DNA of 64,000 bases from an uncultured Gemmatimonadaceae bacterium (GTDB lineage: Bacteria > Gemmatimonadota > Gemmatimonadetes > Gemmatimonadales > Gemmatimonadaceae), in the NCBI GenBank assembly GCA_963817955.1, contig CAWFQK010000004.1, positions 1,504,001-1,568,000 on the forward strand, read 5' to 3'. Positions 32,149-40,704 of this stretch are shown piece after piece. Below the pieces are notes generated by a model. It ran no database searches. It had not been told where the DNA came from and worked only from the letters and a program-made list of their open reading frames with translations. The stretch's first letter is position 1. Every line of letters begins with the position of its first letter. The position numbers and the translations under genes are program-made.

Positions 32149-33210
32149 ATGTCCCGCTATCTTATTTTCTCAGAATCCCAACTTGGAACGCCCGCGGGCA
32201 AGACGGGGCATTCCGTTATTCGATATTCCGCCGGCCAGGTCGCAGCGGTGCTCGACAGCACCCGCGCGGGCCAACGGGTCCAGGACGTCCTCGGTTACGG
32301 CGGCGACATTCCCGTCGTGGCAACGATCGACGAGGGCGTCGCACTCGGTGTCGACGCACTGCTGGTAGGCGTCGCCATGCACGGTGGCGGGTTCACTCAG
32401 GAGGTGCGCACCGCCATCCATGCCGCGATCGACGGTGGTCTCGACATCTGGAACGGCCTGCACGGCTTCGTGAGCGACGATCCCTCGCTGTCTGCACTCG
32501 CCCGGATGCGTGGCGTAGAACTGCACGACGTCCGTCGTCCTCCCGACGCGCTGCCGATCGCCACTGGCCGGGTGCGCGAAGTCGATGCGACGGTCCTGCT
32601 CGCAGTGGGAAGCGACGCCAACATCGGGAAGATGACCGTGATGCTGCAACTGCACGCGGCGCTCACGGCGCGCGGCAGTCGGTCAGCCTTTGCACCCACA
32701 GGACAGACGGGCATCTTCATTCAGGGATGGGGGATCTGTGTCGACGCCGTCGTCGCCGACTTCATTGCCGGCGCGGCGGAATCTGTTACCCTACAGGCGG
32801 CACGGAACGCCGACATCGTGCTCGTCGAAGGACAGGGGTCCATCCTACACCCGGGATATTCCGGCGTGTCGCTCGGATTACTGCACGGCAGCCTGCCACA
32901 CGGGCTCATCGTCTGTCATCAACCATCGCGGAAGACCTTCCGCCACAATGCCTGGCTCAAGATTCCACCCCTGCGCGACGTGATCGCCCTACACGAAGCC
33001 ATGGCGGGCGCGCTGCGCCCCGCGCCGGCCATCGCTGTTTCCCTGAATACGGTGGATATGTCGGATCGGGATGCGCGGGCGGTGATCGACCGCACAGCCG
33101 ACGAGACTGGATTGCCGACGACCGATCCGGTGCGCTACGACGTGGCGCCGCTCGCGGATGCCGTACTCGCCTTCGACTCCGGTCGCCGTGGGGCGACCGC
33201 CCCTTTATGA
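32149..33210 (+). CDS. DUF1611 family P-loop protein
   Basis: 'KTGHSVIRY', 'WNGLH', 'VGSDANIGKMT', 'TGQTGI', 'DAVVADFIAGAAE', 'VEGQGSILHPGYSGV'. Confidence 0.88.
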   Translation: MSRYLIFSESQLGTPAGKTGHSVIRYSAGQVAAVLDSTRAGQRVQDVLGYGGDIPVVATIDEGVALGVDALLVGVAMHGGGFTQEVRTAIHAAIDGGLDIWNGLHGFVSDDPSLSALARMRGVELHDVRRPPDALPIATGRVREVDATVLLAVGSDANIGKMTVMLQLHAALTARGSRSAFAPTGQTGIFIQGWGICVDAVVADFIAGAAESVTLQAARNADIVLVEGQGSILHPGYSGVSLGLLHGSLPHGLIVCHQPSRKTFRHNAWLKIPPLRDVIALHEAMAGALRPAPAIAVSLNTVDMSDRDARAVIDRTADETGLPTTDPVRYDVAPLADAVLAFDSGRRGATAPL

Positions 33211-33833
33211 GCCATTTCATCCGCATGGCGGCATTCGCCACGGTCCTGCTCGCGCCACTCGCTTGCACGGACGGGCGTGCTCGTGCGCTCCAAGAGATCC
33301 GCGGCGTGCAGCTCTCGCCCGTGCGCGCAAAGCCGGACTTCACACTTCTGGATACGGACGGGAAGCCCTTTCACTTCGTGGCCGACACGCGCGGCACGGC
33401 CACGCTGCTGTACTTCGGCTACACCAACTGCCCTGACGTCTGCCCCACGCACCTCACGAACATCGCGGCCGCCATGAAACGGCTCTCGCCGCAGGACCAG
33501 GCAAAGGTCCGAGTCGTGTTCGTAACGACCGATCCGGCGCGCGACACGCCGACGGTGTTGCGTGGCTGGCTCAACAACTTCGATCCGCGGTTCATTGGCC
33601 TACGCGGCGATATTGCCGACGTGAACCGGATTCAGGCGGCGCTCGGCTTGCCGCCCGCCACCATCGAAGCCCTTCCGGGCACAGCCACCGGCGCCCACGC
33701 CGCCTACGGCGTGGGCCACAGCGCGCAGGTGCTGGGCTTTACTCCAGACGACAGCTTGCGGGTGGAGTACCCAAGCGGGTTCACGCCTGCCGATTGGCAG
33801 AATGACTTGCCGAGATTGCTGCGGGTGAAGTGA
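33207..33833 (+). CDS. SCO1/SenC family copper-binding lipoprotein
   Basis: 'YFGYTNCPDVCP', 'TTDPARDT', 'VGHS'; lipobox PLAC; ATGA overlap. Confidence 0.92.
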   Translation: MSHFIRMAAFATVLLAPLACTDGRARALQEIRGVQLSPVRAKPDFTLLDTDGKPFHFVADTRGTATLLYFGYTNCPDVCPTHLTNIAAAMKRLSPQDQAKVRVVFVTTDPARDTPTVLRGWLNNFDPRFIGLRGDIADVNRIQAALGLPPATIEALPGTATGAHAAYGVGHSAQVLGFTPDDSLRVEYPSGFTPADWQNDLPRLLRVK

Positions 33834-33908
33834 GGTTGATTAGTACTGCTTTGTCAGTTTTACCGCGAACTGCCGCGCAGTCGGCGGATGATCGAGCGGG
33901 GGCTGGCG

Positions 33909-34150
33909 CAAGCGATCGGGACGACGGGTGACTGTGATCAGTCATCAGTGCGTGGGTTGTCAGTCATCAGTGACTGAGGACCCCGACAGCCGTCGATCGG
34001 GCGAACAGACCCGCGAACATCCACCACCAAAAAAGACGCGCGGCCGCGAAAGCCGGCCCGAGAGAGAACCCGTCGCGTTGCCGCGCGACTGATGACTGAC
34101 AACCGTTTTACTGATGACTGAAGACAGTCACCCGCTGTCCCGATCGCTTG
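33909..34150. repeat. Long imperfect inverted repeat (63-bp arms, 116-bp spacer); MITE-like or structured RNA
   Basis: 33909-33971 matches the reverse complement of 34088-34150 at 54/63 positions; each arm has two cagtcatcagt modules. Confidence 0.8.
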
Positions 34151-34313
34151 ACCTGGCGTAACGCGCCGGACCCAGCCGCGGTCGTTCGCGCCGTTACCGC
34201 CGCCAGCGCTGAACCTCGGACAGAGCAGTATTAGGCCGCGTGCTCGTCCCGGAATACGTCAAGGACTACGTGTCCTTGAACCAGTTTGCGGCGTAGGCGG
34301 CACAGGAGGATTC

Positions 34314-34729
34314 ATGAGCAAGAGCAACAAGACCATGATTGAAGTCCAGGGCACCTCCGTCGCTGTGCTTTCGCAGAATCAGCAAGACATCATATGCCTG
34401 ACGGACATTGCCAAGTTCAAGAACCCGGATCACCCGGACGATGTGATCCGCAACTGGCTGCGCGGCCGCAACACGGTGGAGTTTCTCGGGGTCTGGGAAC
34501 GGCTCAACAACCCGAGTTTTAATCCCGTCGAATTCGACGGGATTAAAATGCAGACGGGTCTGAACAGCTTTGTCCTCACGCCGAAGCAGTGGATCGAGAG
34601 GACCGGAGCGGTGGGCATCACATCAAAGGCCGGTCGCTACGGCGGCACGTACGCCCATAAGGACATCGCCTTCGAGTTCGCCGCCTGGGTCTCGGTAGAG
34701 TTCAAACTCTACCTCATCAAGGAATTCCA
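34314..34729 (+). pseudogene. KilA-N domain protein, 5' part (interrupted)
   Basis: SD aggagg; 'ICLTDIAK...IRNWLR.RNTVEFLGVWE..NNP.F...GRYGGTYAHKDIAFEFAAWVSVEFKLYLIKEF'. Confidence 0.9.
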
Positions 34730-36323
34730 TCTCGGGTGACATCTGGGCCGGATCGCGGAGTTCGCGAAACACTTCGGTGCTGATTCACACACGTCACTCG
34801 GCGGGGCGGTGTGCCGAGAGATTCGGATCACTTCGGAGCGACCGGAGCCGGCCTGCGAGTCGTGTGCACCGGCACACCAGCTGGCGGCCCTGATTCCACC
34901 TGGTGCGTGTCCACGGGGGGCATCCTGGAACGGAGGCTCCACGGGAGGATATAGGACGCCAGCAAAATGCTGTCTCGGTGTTGACTGAGTACGTAGAGCC
35001 GTTCCCGGTTGCCTGCTACCCGAAGCGCAGATCGCGGGAGCACCATCGTCTGGAGATACGCTCCACTATCAGAATAGAGATCGACCATACGACCCGCGCC
35101 CGCTGAGCGACCGGAGAACAGGAGAGCAACCCCTCCAGGAAAGCTCGTTGCGTCGAGCGTGTAGACCGACGCTGACCGCGTCAGGCGGTCCCAGAGCCGC
35201 TGATACCAAGAATCAGTTGACACTGGCTCGATGTACGGTCCGAGCGGACGCACCGCGGTATCAGCAACGACCACAACGCTTCGCATGCGCGAGGCCCATA
35301 GGACACACGCGCCGCCCAGCGAGCCGCCGAATCGTAAGTCCTGCCACTTGACGGAGCGGCCGTCCACGTACCCCGCGGGGAACGACAACGAGCGAGTTGC
35401 GAACGGCCGTTTCAGATCATGGATGAAGACAGTGCCCGCCTACGTGTCATCGAGGAATGCGATGCTACCGCTGTCGACTACGCAAGCCGTGCGTACGGTT
35501 CCCCGGTCGCTGAGAGTCGCGATGACCTTGATGTAACCTGAGACGTCTCTACTGACGATGCTGCCCGTTTCAGGCACGAGATACCAAGTGACCCCGCCAC
35601 GGGTAACGCCGGCAATGTCAGAGGGAATGCCGAGCGCTGGATTGACACCGGCGGCCACGATCGGGACACGTCCACCGAGCGCTGACATGTTACTGCCCGA
35701 GAGGGGCTTCTCAAGAATGACCTGAAATGCGGCGGGCGGCGACGCTTGTAGAAGAGCCGTCACACCGCCCCCAGACCGAAACGCGACGACGCTCATGCGT
35801 TGCAGATGTGGGACGAAGCGCTCCACGTAGGGCAGACGGTATTCCCACTCCATGTCCCCGAGTCCGCCGACCCGCAGCGGGCCGGAACCCCCGGTATTTG
35901 CCGTGGAGCGCGAATCATGCGTCGCTGAGCATGCGCCGAGCGCCGCCGCGACCGCGAGGACCCCTAGGATCCTGGTGACCGTGGTTGCTATCGATCTGTC
36001 CTCCGTTCTCGCCGAAGGGCCACATTGGAGGAGGCGTGAACGCCGTTTTGCCGCCTGCGACTCAGAAACGATCAATCTCGCTGTCACGGAACCGTCACCA
36101 TTGAGAAGGCGTCTAAACATGCACGGCTGATTCCAACCCTTGGGGCCGGTCTACAGGCGGCGGCCAAACAGCTCAGTGATTGGGCTACACGCCGTGCGCC
36201 AGGCTTCTGTACGCACGGCATGCACACTGGCCGCAGAGAGCTTGTTAGCCCTGAGGGCTACATATCAGTGCCACGGGGTGAAGCAAATAGTTCCTCCGAT
36301 AGAACAGTTAAACTCGAATTCCA
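34722..36323. mobile_element. 1594-bp insertion in the KilA-N gene bounded by direct repeat GAATTCCA
   Basis: GAATTCCA at 34722-34729 and 36316-36323; excision restores ...LIKEFQRLKEEE... in frame (277 aa); no transposase and no terminal inverted repeats. Confidence 0.8.
34828..36120 (-). pseudogene. Hypothetical lipoprotein (possible beta-propeller) with one internal TAG at 35440-35442
   Basis: ORFs 35440-36120 and 34828-35388 are in the same frame; lipobox LGAC; 'VDLYSDSGAYLQTMVLP' propeller-like motif. Confidence 0.55.
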
Positions 36324-36741
36324 GCGCCTCAAGGAAGAGGAAAACCGCCACCTGTCGCTCGCCTGGAACCTTAACCGCACCCTTTCCAAGCTCAACTACC
36401 GAATCCACACCGACGCCATTCAGGCGCACCTGATTCCGGCGGCAGTAACGCCGGCACAGGCTGCCCTCACCTACGCCAGCGAGGCCGACCTGCTCAATGT
36501 CGCCCCGTTTGGCCAGACGGCAAAACAGTGGCGCGAGGAGAACCCAAAGCTGGAAGGCAACATGCGCGATTATGCCACGATCGAGCAGCTGTTGGTACTG
36601 GCCAATATCGAGGGCATGAACGCCGAGTTCATCCACATGACACGGCCACAAAGGGAACGTCTCAAGCGCCTCAATGAAATCGCCATCCGCCAGATGCAGG
36701 TGTTGACATCAACGTCTGCGATCAAACAACTCAAAGGATAA
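36316..36741 (+). pseudogene. KilA-N domain protein, 3' part
   Basis: 'EFQRLKEEE...WNLNRTLSKLNYRIHTDAI..HLIP...YASEADLLNVA.FG.TAKQWR..NP...GNMRDYA..EQLLVLAN'. Confidence 0.9.
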
Positions 36742-36914
36742 TAGTCTGCTCGCCACCGACACCAAACGCCGCATCGACACCGCCCGCGACATCCATACTT
36801 CGCGATTGCTTCTCTTGTCTCGCTGACTGGGCGCTCGCCATGGCCAGACGGCTCGTATCGGCGGCGCAGACGAGAGTCAAAAGCGAGTGCATCAAACAGC
36901 ATATGAGGGTAGGA

Positions 36915-36948
36915 ACGCGAACGGCCGCCCGAGGGCGGCCGTTCGCGT
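36915..36948. terminator. Perfect 16-bp-stem hairpin between convergent genes
   Basis: acgcgaacggccgccc-ga-gggcggccgttcgcgt. Confidence 0.7.
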
Positions 36949-36981
36949 GTACTGCGGGGTGTGACCTACGGGTGCGGCGTG

Positions 36982-37740
36982 TTACACCGCCGGCAACTGC
37001 GATGCCGGAGGTGTGGATGCTGCCGGCGGCGTTGCTGGCGCCGCCATACTGCCCTGCGTGGTGGCGTCCGCTTGTGCCGCGCTCGCGCGAGCGCCGATCT
37101 TGACGCCCGGCTTGTGAGCGACGCGCTTCGCTGTGGTCCATGCCGCCTGCAGGCCGGCATCGGCGCCGATCAACGGCAGCAGCAAGCCGTTGAGCACCGT
37201 GATGATGGTGCGACCACGCCGCTCCTCAGCCGCCAGGGATGCCGTCGCCCCGCTTCGGACCACGGCTTGCCCCGATCGACCATCAATGGCGTCCTGGAGC
37301 CCCTGCGCGGACGCCTGCAACCGCGCGATGAAATCCGCCGGGAGCCCGTTAGCCGTGAACACCGCCGCGTGGCGCGCCGCGGCCTCGCCCATCGCCGCCG
37401 CCGCCGCGAGCAGTCGCTCCGTCGAGACGGTCGAGCGCGGCGTGGTGAGCGAGCTAAAATCGGGAACAGCCGGTAGCCGAAGCTTCGCGATCGCCGCGAT
37501 GGGATCCATCTGGTGGATCCGCAACGCAAGGCGCAGCGCGCCCAGCTTCGACGTCTCCCCTCGGCTCGCGCGGCCACCGACCTCCTGAGCGGTGGCGGAT
37601 GCGCTGAGTTGGGTGATAGTGTCGGTCAGCTCCTGCCGAGCGGCAGAACCCAGGAGCGAGGCGAACGCCGTGGGTTGGGCATCGAGAAAGGTGTCGATGC
37701 GGCGGAGCGCTTCGAGCATACTGCCTTCGTGGTATTTCAT
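36982..37740 (-). CDS. Alpha-helical hypothetical protein (252 aa)
   Basis: SD ggagg before ATG 37740; 'LEALRRIDTFLD...MDPIAAIAK...LLAAAAAM...F...GLPADFI..L...AAW..AKRV'. Confidence 0.75.
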   Translation of the reverse strand: MKYHEGSMLEALRRIDTFLDAQPTAFASLLGSAARQELTDTITQLSASATAQEVGGRASRGETSKLGALRLALRIHQMDPIAAIAKLRLPAVPDFSSLTTPRSTVSTERLLAAAAAMGEAAARHAAVFTANGLPADFIARLQASAQGLQDAIDGRSGQAVVRSGATASLAAEERRGRTIITVLNGLLLPLIGADAGLQAAWTTAKRVAHKPGVKIGARASAAQADATTQGSMAAPATPPAASTPPASQLPAV

Positions 37741-37822
37741 GTGGCCTCCCGGCCGATGGGGCGCCGAAATGGACCTGCACCCCGACGGGCGCCCGATGCG
37801 CCGGGGTCGAAAAATGAGAGCA

Positions 37823-38730
37823 ACCGCCTCGAGCGGTTGCGGTGTGGTCTTGGGGAGTTGCGCTGTGGTCTTGAGGAGTTGCGATATCGTCTCGGAGAGC
37901 TGGGGTGTCGCCTCAGCAAGTTGCGCTGTCATCTCGGAGAGTCGGGGTGTCGCCTCAGCGAGTTGGGGTGTCGCCTCAGCGAGTTGGAGTGGCGTCTCGG
38001 AGCGTTGGAGTGCCGTCTCGCCGAGTTGGAGTCCCATGTCGACGCGTCAGGGTTCCATCTCAACGCGTTGGGATCCCGTCTCAACGCGTTGGAGTGCCAT
38101 CGCAAGGCGTTCCGATTGCGTCTCGATGAGTTAGGATTCCAGCTCGACGCGCTGGGGTGCCGCCTCTGCGAGTTGGAGTGCCGTCTCGCCGCGCTCAGCT
38201 TGTGCCTTGGCGCGTTGGAGTGCTCTCTCGCCGCACTCCGATTGTGTCTTGGGGAGTTGGAGTGCCGTCTCGATGCGTTGCGATCTCAGCTCGAGGCGCT
38301 CCGATTGCATCTCGGCAGCGGGCACTGCCGTCTCTGCACGGGCGGGTGTCGTCTCGCGGCGATGCGATGCCTGCTCTGCGCGCGAGGATCCTGGCTCAAC
38401 CCGCAGGGATCCTCGCTCGCCACGTTGCGATTCCGTCTACATCCGCAACGATCCTTGCTCGGTCCGTTGGGATTCCGTCTCGGCTCGCAACGATCCTTGC
38501 TCGGCCCGTTGGGATTCCGTCTCGGCTCGCAACGATCCTTGCTCGATCCGTTGCGATCCTATCTGGGCACGCGACGATCCCTGCTTGGCGCGTTGCAATA
38601 CCATCTCGCGGCATTGCGATGCTCGCTCGGCCCGATCGAATTCCATCTCGGCACGATCGAATTCCATCTCGGCACGATCGAATCCCGTCTCGGCCCGATC
38701 GAATTCCATCTCGACACGATCGATCCCGTC
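37823..38730. repeat. Degenerate 21-bp tandem array, about 43 units
   Basis: Phase kept throughout; approximate consensus (g/t)ccgtctcggcgcgttgcgat; + frame reads as LxxLxxx heptads. Confidence 0.9.
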
Positions 38731-38957
38731 TCGGCCCCTTCGCATTCGATCATGCCACGATCGATCCCGTCTCGATCCATTCGCATTCGATGCGTGGCAC
38801 GATCGATCCCGTCTCGCCGCCCGATCGTCCCGCGATGATCGTAGTCCTATATATTAGTTCCGAAATTGGGGGGTCAGCGCAAGGGCCAATATGACCGATT
38901 GACCAATACCGCCATGTTTTGAGCGTTTCAGCGTTAGTACTATTAGAGCGGTACGTC

Positions 38958-39001
38958 GGTCCCGTGTCCGGTGTCCCGTGTCCCGTGTCCCGTGTCCCGT
39001 G
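38958..39001 (+). repeat. 7-bp tandem array (GTGTCCC)n, about 6 units
   Basis: Read directly. Confidence 0.85.
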
Positions 39002-39281
39002 GTACCGGACGAGTCACGAGCTGGCCTGCGCGTGCGTGGAGCGGCCGGCCACGAGATCGCGGCGACCGGCAACACCGATCCGCGGAAGAGCGTCACCGAT
39101 CTGACGCTCCTGTTGAGTGGCATCGATCCGCCGCCGTCGCGCGTGCGCCGCTGGTGGCGGCCCGTCGAGGGACCCGGCGCCAAGACACTCTAGAACTTGC
39201 TCATAATCGCCCAGCGTCGTAGGTTGCGGCGCGATGGCGCTTGCGGAAGGACCGCCCTGGAACGACAACCGGGTTGACGAG

Positions 39282-40099
39282 ATGACTCAGTCACAGTTGA
39301 CAACTCGACGGACGCCTGCCGGCCGATACTCGCTCATCACGCTGATCTTGCTGGCGGGCATACTGACCCGTCCCGAGGTGGCACGGGCTCAAGGTACGTC
39401 AGGCGCCCCCGCACCGCCGACGAAGGCGAGCGTGTTGGCAGGTCGCGTGCGGGATCAGTTAGGTCACCCGATAGGACTCGCTGCAGTGAGTGCAGAACAG
39501 GGCGCGAGTGCCGTGTCCGGCGATTCGGGCATTTTCAGGTTGGTGGGCCTATTGCCCGGGCAGGCGGAAATCACCGTAGCGCGGATCGGCTACGCGCCTG
39601 TCAGGTTTGCCGTGACCATGCCAGCCGACTCGACGGTATTCGTTGAGGTACATATGGAATCGGTCACCTCCTTGGCTGCTGTCGAAATTAGCGGCCGCCC
39701 CGCCAACTCCATGCTTACAGGCCAAGGGTTTTACGAACGCAAGCGGTTGGACTCGGCATGTTCCTAGATCCCGACCAAATCGCGGCACGGCCGTTTTCCT
39801 ACGTTTCGCAGCAGCTTATGGATGTGCCGAGCGCTTCGATCAAAAAAAAGAACATGGGCATAGGCTACTCGGTATTGTTTTTCTCGCACGCTACCGGAGG
39901 CTTTTGCGCACCTACCGTATTCGTCGACGGCGTATACCTAACAATCCCCATTGACGAGTTCCTAAGCGGATCCGAGGTCTACGCAATTGAAGTCTACCCC
40001 CACGCAACACAGGTTCCCCTCAAGTTTCAGCCGCCGATGCAGGACGTCCCCTGTGGGGCAATCGCCATCTGGACAAAGTCAGGGATGCATACGAAATAA
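39282..40099 (+). pseudogene. Carboxypeptidase-regulatory-like plus plug-domain protein, frameshifted at about 39750
   Basis: 'GFYERKRL' then a frame change to 'MFLDPDQI...C.PTVFVDG...AIEVY...CGAIAIWTK'; one added G gives RLGLGMFL. Confidence 0.75.
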
Positions 40100-40152
40100 C
40101 CGACGCTGTCGCGGGTGTAATGCCTCAGCTGGAACTGGAGTGTTCGTCCACC

Positions 40153-40638
40153 ATGAAAGTTATCGCGTTCGTTTCAGCAACCGTCTGCACACTTGCCCTT
40201 TCGCTTCATGCGCAGCAACCGAGCGAGCTGCAGGCTGTTGAGCGTGCCATGGTATCGTACGCTGGAGCTCATCTAGCCACCACCGAGGTCATCGTCTTCG
40301 ACGGAGTTCCTACGAGTGCGAAGCAAGCCACCCGGCCGCCAGCGCACGTAGCTTCACTCGCCAGCGCGTTGCACGCGCAACGGATCGGCCGTACGGACGA
40401 CTTCTATAAATGCGCGTCGAGCAAGCCGTCGACCTGCTCCATTAGTGGCGCCGATGCAATCATTTCGCTCAGCGAACCTACGATACAAGGCGATACGGCC
40501 TTGATCACCGTTCGAGTCTTGCGTGCAACACGCAGCCAGCGCGCGCCCGTCGCGCGAAGCGAGGATCGCTATCGTCTCGTGCGGCATGGCGATGGTTCGT
40601 GGACTGTTGACGGGTGGGTTGCTGGGAGTATCACCTAG
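40153..40638 (+). CDS. Secreted hypothetical protein
   Basis: Signal peptide MKVIAFVSATVCTLALSLHA; upstream ggag. Confidence 0.6.
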   Translation: MKVIAFVSATVCTLALSLHAQQPSELQAVERAMVSYAGAHLATTEVIVFDGVPTSAKQATRPPAHVASLASALHAQRIGRTDDFYKCASSKPSTCSISGADAIISLSEPTIQGDTALITVRVLRATRSQRAPVARSEDRYRLVRHGDGSWTVDGWVAGSIT

Positions 40639-40704
40639 GGTGACGCCCTGCCCAGCTTCGTGCTGGCCATGCGGCGATTGGCGCGCTTCCTGGGCGCGTT
40701 GATA

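Follow-up and report, generated by a model that had tools for sequence, protein, structure and literature searches.

The stretch of DNA analysed here, hereafter the window, comprises 64,000 nucleotides from an uncultured Gemmatimonadaceae bacterium (assembly GCA_963817955.1, contig CAWFQK010000004.1, positions 1,504,001 to 1,568,000), and plain coordinates below are those of the window. At 34314-36741 it holds a gene of the KilA-N family that lies in two pieces, separated by an insert, and the 8-bp sequence GAATTCCA stands at each of the two junctions. The original prediction was of a KilA-N gene precisely split by an insert without recombinase and flanked by 8-bp direct repeats; as explanations it offered a cassette moved by a recombinase acting in trans, a remnant of a larger element, a gene switch controlled by excision, restriction-mediated capture, or an artefact of library or assembly. 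The description has held up at both junctions, and of the explanations none is favoured here.

A KilA-N gene split between codons 138 and 139

The split gene and its repeat consist of four features:

34314..34729, plus strand: 5' part of the KilA-N gene, residues 1-138 (Pfam PF04383, E 4.5e-19; 87-94% identity to full-length homologues)
34722..34729, unstranded: left copy of the 8-bp direct repeat GAATTCCA (window sequence)
36316..36323, unstranded: right copy of the 8-bp direct repeat GAATTCCA (window sequence)
36316..36741, plus strand: 3' part of the KilA-N gene, residues 137-277 and then a stop (alignment with full-length homologues)

The two copies of the repeat are 1594 bp apart, with 1586 bp between them, and their contexts read ATCAAG GAATTCCA TCTCGG on the left and AAACTC GAATTCCA GCGCC on the right. 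The open reading frame (ORF) of the 5' part, 34314-34739, enters the insert and ends there as KLYLIKEFHLG, with its stop at 34737-34739; the 3' part picks up with EFQRLKEEE in the frame of an ORF at 36220-36741. When aligned with eight full-length homologues, the window pieces join at ...KLYLIKEF/QRLKE..., and the precision of this join was then judged on a larger set. In the homologue search, none of 8000 scored candidates was weaker than E 0.001; the top 120 (275-309 amino acids, 87-94% identical to the N half in the window) were used. In 120 of 120 the halves abut exactly: the N half aligned through residue 138 and the C half from residue 137, the overlap being the duplicated E-F alone. The split lies between codons 138 and 139, no target bases are lost, and 8 bp stand on each side. 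The KilA-N domain and the conserved C-terminal half are collinear with all 120 homologues, as in a KilA-N protein of about 277 amino acids.

The two pieces are judged from these alignments to be one gene and not two paralogues, because the same homologues rank high for both halves and there is no second KilA-N copy in the genome. Among the top 15 homologues common to the halves, identity was 89-94% for N and 85-91% for C; the original prediction had named a best match of the halves to different paralogues as what would overturn it, and both halves matched the same homologues. By calculation, a precise split would show the same 8 bp at each junction by chance with a probability of about 4^-8, so the repeat is far beyond chance.

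Whether the site is recurrent was examined in 80 KilA-N loci from other genomes (L012-L091), completing a survey at the same codon that had been suggested with the prediction. A single full-length match was given by 71 of the loci, and the remaining nine were cut short by a contig end, had a frameshift, or were accompanied by additional partial copies; none of the 80 was interrupted at codon 138. The sequence GAATTCCA was found at exactly the codon-138 position in 43 of the 80, and not one of these 43 sites was occupied. Among 120 shorter homologues, the ends of homology were scattered over residues 121 to 277, with three at 138, no more than at several other positions. The split codon is thus no insertion hot spot, and among the homologues examined the event is unique.

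A separate observation concerns the KilA-N reading frame itself, which contains a perfect 32-bp palindrome at 34517-34548 with GAATTC at its centre. It was compared across the 80 loci, which come from many phyla and gave 72 distinct sequences. Except at position 14, arm positions 1-16 form Watson-Crick pairs in 61-72 of the 72 sequences; position 14 is T-A in 31 and T-G in 38. Positions 6-10 each show two to four types of complementary pair, and pairing falls to 6 and 11 of 72 at positions 17-18. The palindrome is thus maintained via compensatory changes, and it could be a hairpin in mRNA or single-stranded DNA, or a protein-binding site, kept within the ORF. No Rfam family was found in 33000-40000. 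The gene family, of roughly 277 amino acids, is very widespread and very conserved across phyla: of 601 pattern hits in species-representative genomes, 592 proved to be relatives, and the 80 loci kept represent Verrucomicrobiota, Bacteroidota, Nitrospira, Proteobacteria, and archaea such as Methanoperedenaceae and Methanoregula. This by-product of the analysis may be more useful than the insertion, and more deserving of attention.

The operon relic, the insert, and the island around them

The KilA-N gene does not stand in an operon of its own but between two gene ends:

34234..34297, plus strand: relic, 3' end of a type I R-subunit gene, ...RVLVPEYVKDYVSLNQFAA followed by the stop (tblastx to the gene upstream of KilA-N in loci L024 and L027)
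36747..36794, plus strand: relic, 5' end of a fused HsdM-HsdS gene, ..LLATDTKRRIDTARDI (tblastx to L022, L024 and L027)

The 64 bp ahead of the KilA-N ribosome-binding region encode RVLVPEYVKDYVSLNQFAA and its stop, so that about 21 R codons are left, and the 48 bp past the KilA-N stop encode LLATDTKRRIDTARDI, with about 17 codons of the methylase-specificity (M-S) gene left. The M-S homology ends at 36794, and metagenome contigs show loose ends behind this position. In L024 the corresponding genes encode, upstream of KilA-N, an 846 amino acid R subunit with HSDR_N and ResIII domains, and downstream an 835 amino acid fused methylase-specificity protein with N6_Mtase and Methylase_S domains. 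No complete R, M, and S genes surround KilA-N in the window, which thus holds a fragment and not an operon. A search of 60 relatives, at the level of genus (30), family (6), and order (24), found the gene in none of them, and its G+C content, 0.56-0.59, lies below the 0.63-0.65 of the contigs. Its flanks match the end of the R gene and the start of the M-S gene of L024, L027, and L022; with the negative search in relatives and the lower G+C, this makes KilA-N here part of a foreign type I restriction-modification operon of which a fragment of roughly 1 kb is left.

The R / KilA-N / M-S layout is one of several for the family. Among the 75 loci with enough downstream DNA, 3 have an M-S gene of the relic kind that begins no more than 150 nt past KilA-N; among the 76 with enough upstream DNA, 2 have an R gene of the relic kind that ends no more than 150 nt ahead of it. 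In one metagenome contig, 21 other letters link the end of the R gene to the start of the M gene, and a form of the operon without KilA-N therefore exists. Among the titles and abstracts of the literature matches listed, none dealt with KilA-N genes inside type I restriction-modification operons.

Within this fragment lies the insert, which contains one recognisable gene:

34730..36315, unstranded: insert, 1586 bp, single-copy (genome search; G+C)
34828..36120, minus strand: pseudogene of a lipoprotein family (frame reading; homologue alignment)

The insert is host-like DNA. Its G+C is 0.61-0.65, that is, close to the contigs rather than to KilA-N, and the genome holds no other copy of it except a 457-bp piece of a paralogous gene at 72% identity. 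The antisense lipoprotein-like gene of the original prediction survives only in part, in that the lipoprotein frame is there but an intact gene is not. The frame runs for 429 codons from 36120 to 34831, with the codon of the lipobox cysteine at 35931, and is interrupted by an in-frame TAG at 35440-35442, a position occupied by R, H, or D in three homologues. A GGAGGA stands 7 nt ahead of an ATA; no canonical start codon occurs from 36075 up to the signal peptide, and the nearest in frame lies 48 codons ahead of the lipobox cysteine. With its in-frame TAG and no usable canonical start near the lipobox, the gene is a pseudogene.

Homologues of the gene are rare. An intact one, a lipoprotein of 393 amino acids with 55% identity, is present in the metagenome locus L010. 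Two order-level relatives have homologues at 41% (G047, a good match) and 35% (G040, a weak one), and the host itself has an N-terminally truncated paralogue at C2:713344-714165, 62-64% identical over the C part. The protein was not found in any of 24 same-genus genomes searched, and neither Pfam nor NCBIfam has a family for it. No donor locus was found: a scan of the genome contigs gave none, and metagenome contigs gave only two distant loci (55% and 40%).

Operon relic and insert belong to an island of 6.9 kb (33834-40704) between the SCO1 and DUF2891 genes of the window. In the congeners G009, G012, G006, and G021 (four of four fetched), DUF2891 follows directly after SCO1, and the gap between the tblastn matches of the two was about 50, 270, and 680 bp in three same-strand congener loci; in the flanking core genes, identity to the nearest relatives compared is only about 68-74%, and to the nearest of 30 congeners about 73%. 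There is no tRNA gene, integrase, or phage gene near the island. In order, it consists of the repeat R1, the operon relic with its insert, a filler, the repeat R2, and two small genes, and the three features flanking the relic are

33840..34233, unstranded: R1, roughly 395 bp, a repeat resembling a miniature inverted-repeat transposable element (MITE) (genome repeat search; alignment of eight copies)
36795..36901, unstranded: filler, 107 bp between the operon relic and R2 (no match elsewhere in the genome)
36902..38975, minus strand: R2, multi-copy module of hairpin, ORF, 21-bp array, and conserved upstream region (genome repeat comparisons)

R1 has terminal inverted repeats reading (G/A)TACTGCT(T/C)TGTC and, inside, an inverted repeat of 63 bp (33909-33971 / 34088-34150). 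The genome contains at least 12 copies of R1, full or partial; in the alignment of eight, the three copies complete at both ends have TA on both sides. This pattern of ends is typical of IS630/Tc1-type elements. R1 is context and not part of the KilA-N insertion. We had considered that the whole of 34234-36900 was inserted between R1 and R2, and withdrew this; R1 being a TA-flanked MITE, the adjacency of R1 and R2 at C2:999 kb and C5:100 kb is better read as independent insertion of R1.

R2 is roughly 2.1 kb long, with at least 12-14 diverged copies in the genome at 68-95% identity. Its parts are a conserved hairpin resembling a terminator (36915-36948), a minus-strand ORF of 351 codons that matches no Pfam family, an array of about 47 units of a 21-bp tandem repeat (37836-38827), and a conserved AT-rich upstream region. 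A plus-strand ORF of 441 codons also spans the array, so that either strand of the array may be the coding one. At the right edge of R2 lies a heptamer array, (GTCCCGT)n, in six copies (38959-39001), and GTGTCCC runs resembling it adjoin other copies of R2.

Origin of the split

The insert has no features of its own able to direct mobility. It was predicted to lack both a recombinase and terminal inverted repeats, and gene content and the search for inverted pairs agree: it contains no transposase or integrase, and none of the 25 longest of 56 inverted pairs links its ends. The folds of the two ends are not significant hairpins (z -0.18 and -1.0). A single GTTRRRY (GTTAAAC, 36307-36313) was found, with no inverse core on either strand that would make an attC site. 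The suggested check of the insert ends against the genome revealed no second copy at up to four mismatches, a reading of the junctions together with the repeat search gave no inverted arm-type sites around the shared core at either junction, and a scan for promoters and terminators yielded nothing above chance. Two apparent leads were set aside. A pile-up of weak BLAST matches on the left end reflects a G+C-rich background, as control pieces behaved alike, and a 13/16 match of the right end to the R1 inverted repeat was treated as chance, being noticed post hoc and having an unbiased P of 0.017, uncorrected, among eight tests.

What remains is the 8-bp repeat. As for transposons of the DDE class, the repeat expected of a target-site duplication of fixed length is there, exact and of the same 8-bp length as at two resident copies of the IS256 family; the terminal inverted repeats, several copies, or related autonomous element that would define a DDE element or MITE are absent. 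Neither an attC site nor boundaries between G and TT without target duplication, the marks of an integron cassette, are present: its boundaries fall within GAATTCCA, whose 8 bp are present twice. Nor does the insert have the subterminal hairpins and unduplicated target of IS200/IS605 elements or palindrome-associated transposable elements (PATEs).

Very probably, the split is a one-off scar without function, made by no dedicated recombinase and serving no switch. In the best reading, KilA-N was already dead or dying when the insertion happened. A clean 8-bp repeat without target loss implies either a staggered opening that was filled in or one crossover within a pre-existing 8-bp identity, and with moderate confidence we hold to the former, that is, to a true 8-bp target-site duplication from a single illegitimate insertion. 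Nicks with a stagger of 8 nt would have opened the target, the segment would have been ligated to the overhangs, and fill-in of the gaps would have left the duplication. One of the two likeliest agents would be a DDE transposase, perhaps of the resident IS256 family, acting once on non-canonical ends; the genome has two intact copies of this family, with 8-bp duplications CTCCTTCG and CCGCTTCC. The other would be end-joining by Ku/LigD, filling in a staggered break and capturing a loose chromosomal fragment, and a Ku gene is present in the genome. According to two reports on bacterial non-homologous end-joining (NHEJ), 5' overhangs are filled in and endogenous or foreign fragments captured at chromosomal breaks (PMC6379672, PMC5869714).

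As a side observation on the resident elements, a third IS256-family transposase gene, at G000:C4:1379453-1383107, is itself split by a 2582-bp IS21-family element, which is 99.96% identical to a copy at C1:550646-553227.

A true duplication has the merit of being a one-step event, but several points weigh against it. The insert ends are unlike the ends of any resident insertion sequence (IS) (four resident repeat families, eight tests): the right end gave P 0.007, uncorrected, against the IS256 inverted repeat, and the left end 0.55 or higher. Apart from transposases, nothing in nature is known to make breaks staggered by 8 nt. The presence of the palindrome GAATTC in the repeat has a calculated probability of about 1 in 20 for a random 8-mer, and the 16-mer at the circle junction, where the insert ends would meet around one repeat, equals a unit of the 21-bp array in R2, which under a true duplication would be coincidence. 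Finally, neither junction is confirmed by reads, and no public contig bridges either.

It is the 16-mer that brings in the crossover, which we consider unlikely. Here, a segment that already carried GAATTCCA would have recombined with the GAATTCCA of KilA-N by short-homology recombination or template switching, either as a circle looped out between repeat units or as a neighbouring segment swapped in place, and the 21-bp array, with units reading TCGAATTCCATCTCGG, would have been its former home or its partner. The insert ends set head to tail with one repeat do contain TCGAATTCCATCTCGG. The genome has only four copies of this 16-mer: two lie 1.9 kb downstream, within the R2 array (38636-38651 and 38657-38672), and two in the closest paralogue, at C4:246 kb. 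The circle junction scored against the array above 300 of 300 shuffles. An insertion in a tandem array would automatically be flanked by direct repeats, which would make looping out easy, and a cut-and-paste move would account for the segment being single-copy. However, the match was noticed post hoc, and beyond 2 + 6 bases the insert ends are not array-like, as 92 and 188 of 300 shuffles score as well. In a calibration on the genome, about 0.11-0.13 of the contexts of GAATTCCA or of hybrids reached an extension of at least 8, a proportion inflated by true repeats. Neither the cargo paralogue nor the L010 homologue has tandem arrays beside it, and the crossover needs three events where direct insertion needs one.

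A bolder form of the same idea is a long shot: an undescribed way of moving DNA without inverted repeats or a recombinase of its own, in which segments hop between array-unit sites containing GAATTCCA. Either a host enzyme would drive it, or the 21-bp arrays of the R2 copies (at least 14) would serve as donor or landing pads; 8-bp repeats would be left behind, and the 16-nt identity would be a trace. The finding would gain weight, and repeat-guided exchange of segments would be indicated, if closely related strains showed movement or a donor in a 21-bp array.

That the insert is a cassette without recombinase, moved in trans by a site-specific recombinase with GAATTCCA as its crossover core, is very doubtful, and the original suggestion to this effect is left without support. 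An 8-bp identity at both junctions fits the overlap region of a tyrosine recombinase, and the genome has seven such (Phage_integrase) genes. None of the seven lies in the window, though, and GAATTCCA occurs only once within 5 kb of any of them. The missing attC site, end folds, and G-TT boundaries, the lack of inverted binding arms around the core, the uniqueness of the insert ends in the genome, and the 43 unoccupied GAATTCCA sites in other KilA-N loci all argue against it. The two companion suggestions fare no better. A remnant of a larger element is unlikely because the repeat abuts both present ends, and a switch controlled by excision makes no sense for an orphan fragment with neither an operon nor an intact cargo: KilA-N is a stranded piece of operon, and the cargo gene a pseudogene.

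The GAATTC in the repeat also raises restriction and ligation, in which a GAATTC-ended fragment would have been joined into the GAATTC of KilA-N, in vivo by an EcoRI-like enzyme or in vitro. GAATTC stands at both junctions and nowhere inside the insert, and only the extra CA would have to match by chance, at 1 in 16, which by calculation makes this about as likely as an 8-bp duplication that contains the palindrome. Overall, we consider it highly improbable. The genome has 1049 GAATTC sites, where about 490 are expected from base composition, and since the site is not avoided there is no sign of an EcoRI-like system in the lineage. To arise in vitro, the structure would require the joining of three fragments, each correctly placed and oriented, and two metagenome runs contain pieces that match the insert at 100% identity, so that the segment itself is natural.

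Least probable of all is an assembly artefact, although the assembly is of metagenome type (nine contigs, 4.3% contamination). The evidence from public reads consists of contigs from three metagenome runs of one study (shares 0.13, 0.07, and 0.00), which gave 151-206-nt pieces inside the insert at 100% identity (X1, X2) or KilA-N of other organisms (X3), with no junction bridged. One X2 record, 151 nt and fully aligned, spans 34722-34872 and ends exactly at the repeat, and is thus uninformative on the sequence beyond. Neither the rejoined nor the circle form was seen in the contigs of the three runs, whose pieces stop short of bridging the junctions. Against an artefact, assemblers work with overlaps far longer than the 8-bp repeat, a chimera would not both duplicate 8 bp and leave the frame exactly restorable, and the G+C of the insert and its 62-64% identical paralogue fit the same genome.

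The locus is thus best described as a well-preserved scar of gene decay in an accessory island, with a foreign operon fragment, a host segment in it, and a MITE adjoining. As it stands, the finding matters little, other than as a reminder that a recombinase-free insert can be framed by an exact direct repeat without belonging to a cassette system or a switch.

Comparison with known systems

Intervening elements excised during development, such as skin in sigK and that in nifD, resemble the insert in splitting a gene precisely, with the frame restored when the insert is deleted. These elements encode their own recombinase and interrupt functional genes, whereas the gene split here is an orphan operon fragment and the insert carries only a pseudogene. 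Cis-mobilizable elements (CIMEs) and Xer-dependent integrative mobile elements (IMEXs) share with it a short flanking direct repeat and the lack of a recombinase. They occupy defined att or dif sites, which have recombinase-binding arms, and are found at these repeatedly, whereas the present insert has no arms, does not recur, and has its target within a relic gene. Integron gene cassettes, including those inserted at secondary sites and those in clusters of attC sites lacking an integron-integrase (CALIN arrays), are likewise promoter-poor units of a single gene without a recombinase of their own. Integron recombination makes no target duplication; the insert has one, and it differs further in its lack of attC and in boundaries that are not at G-TT.

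Two further likenesses are with the candidate agents. Insertions of DDE elements, that is, of the IS256 family and non-autonomous derivatives, show the same 8-bp repeat, the same lack of target loss, and the same disruption of a gene, but the insert differs from them in having no terminal inverted repeats, no transposase, one copy only, and ends unlike those of the resident IS. The fragments captured by NHEJ in Sinorhizobium meliloti (PMC6379672) and Streptomyces ambofaciens (PMC5869714) are unrelated to their target, featureless, free of recombinase, and partly endogenous, as here, and Ku is present in this genome as well; the junctions published there have small deletions or additions, whereas the present one is a clean 8-bp duplication.

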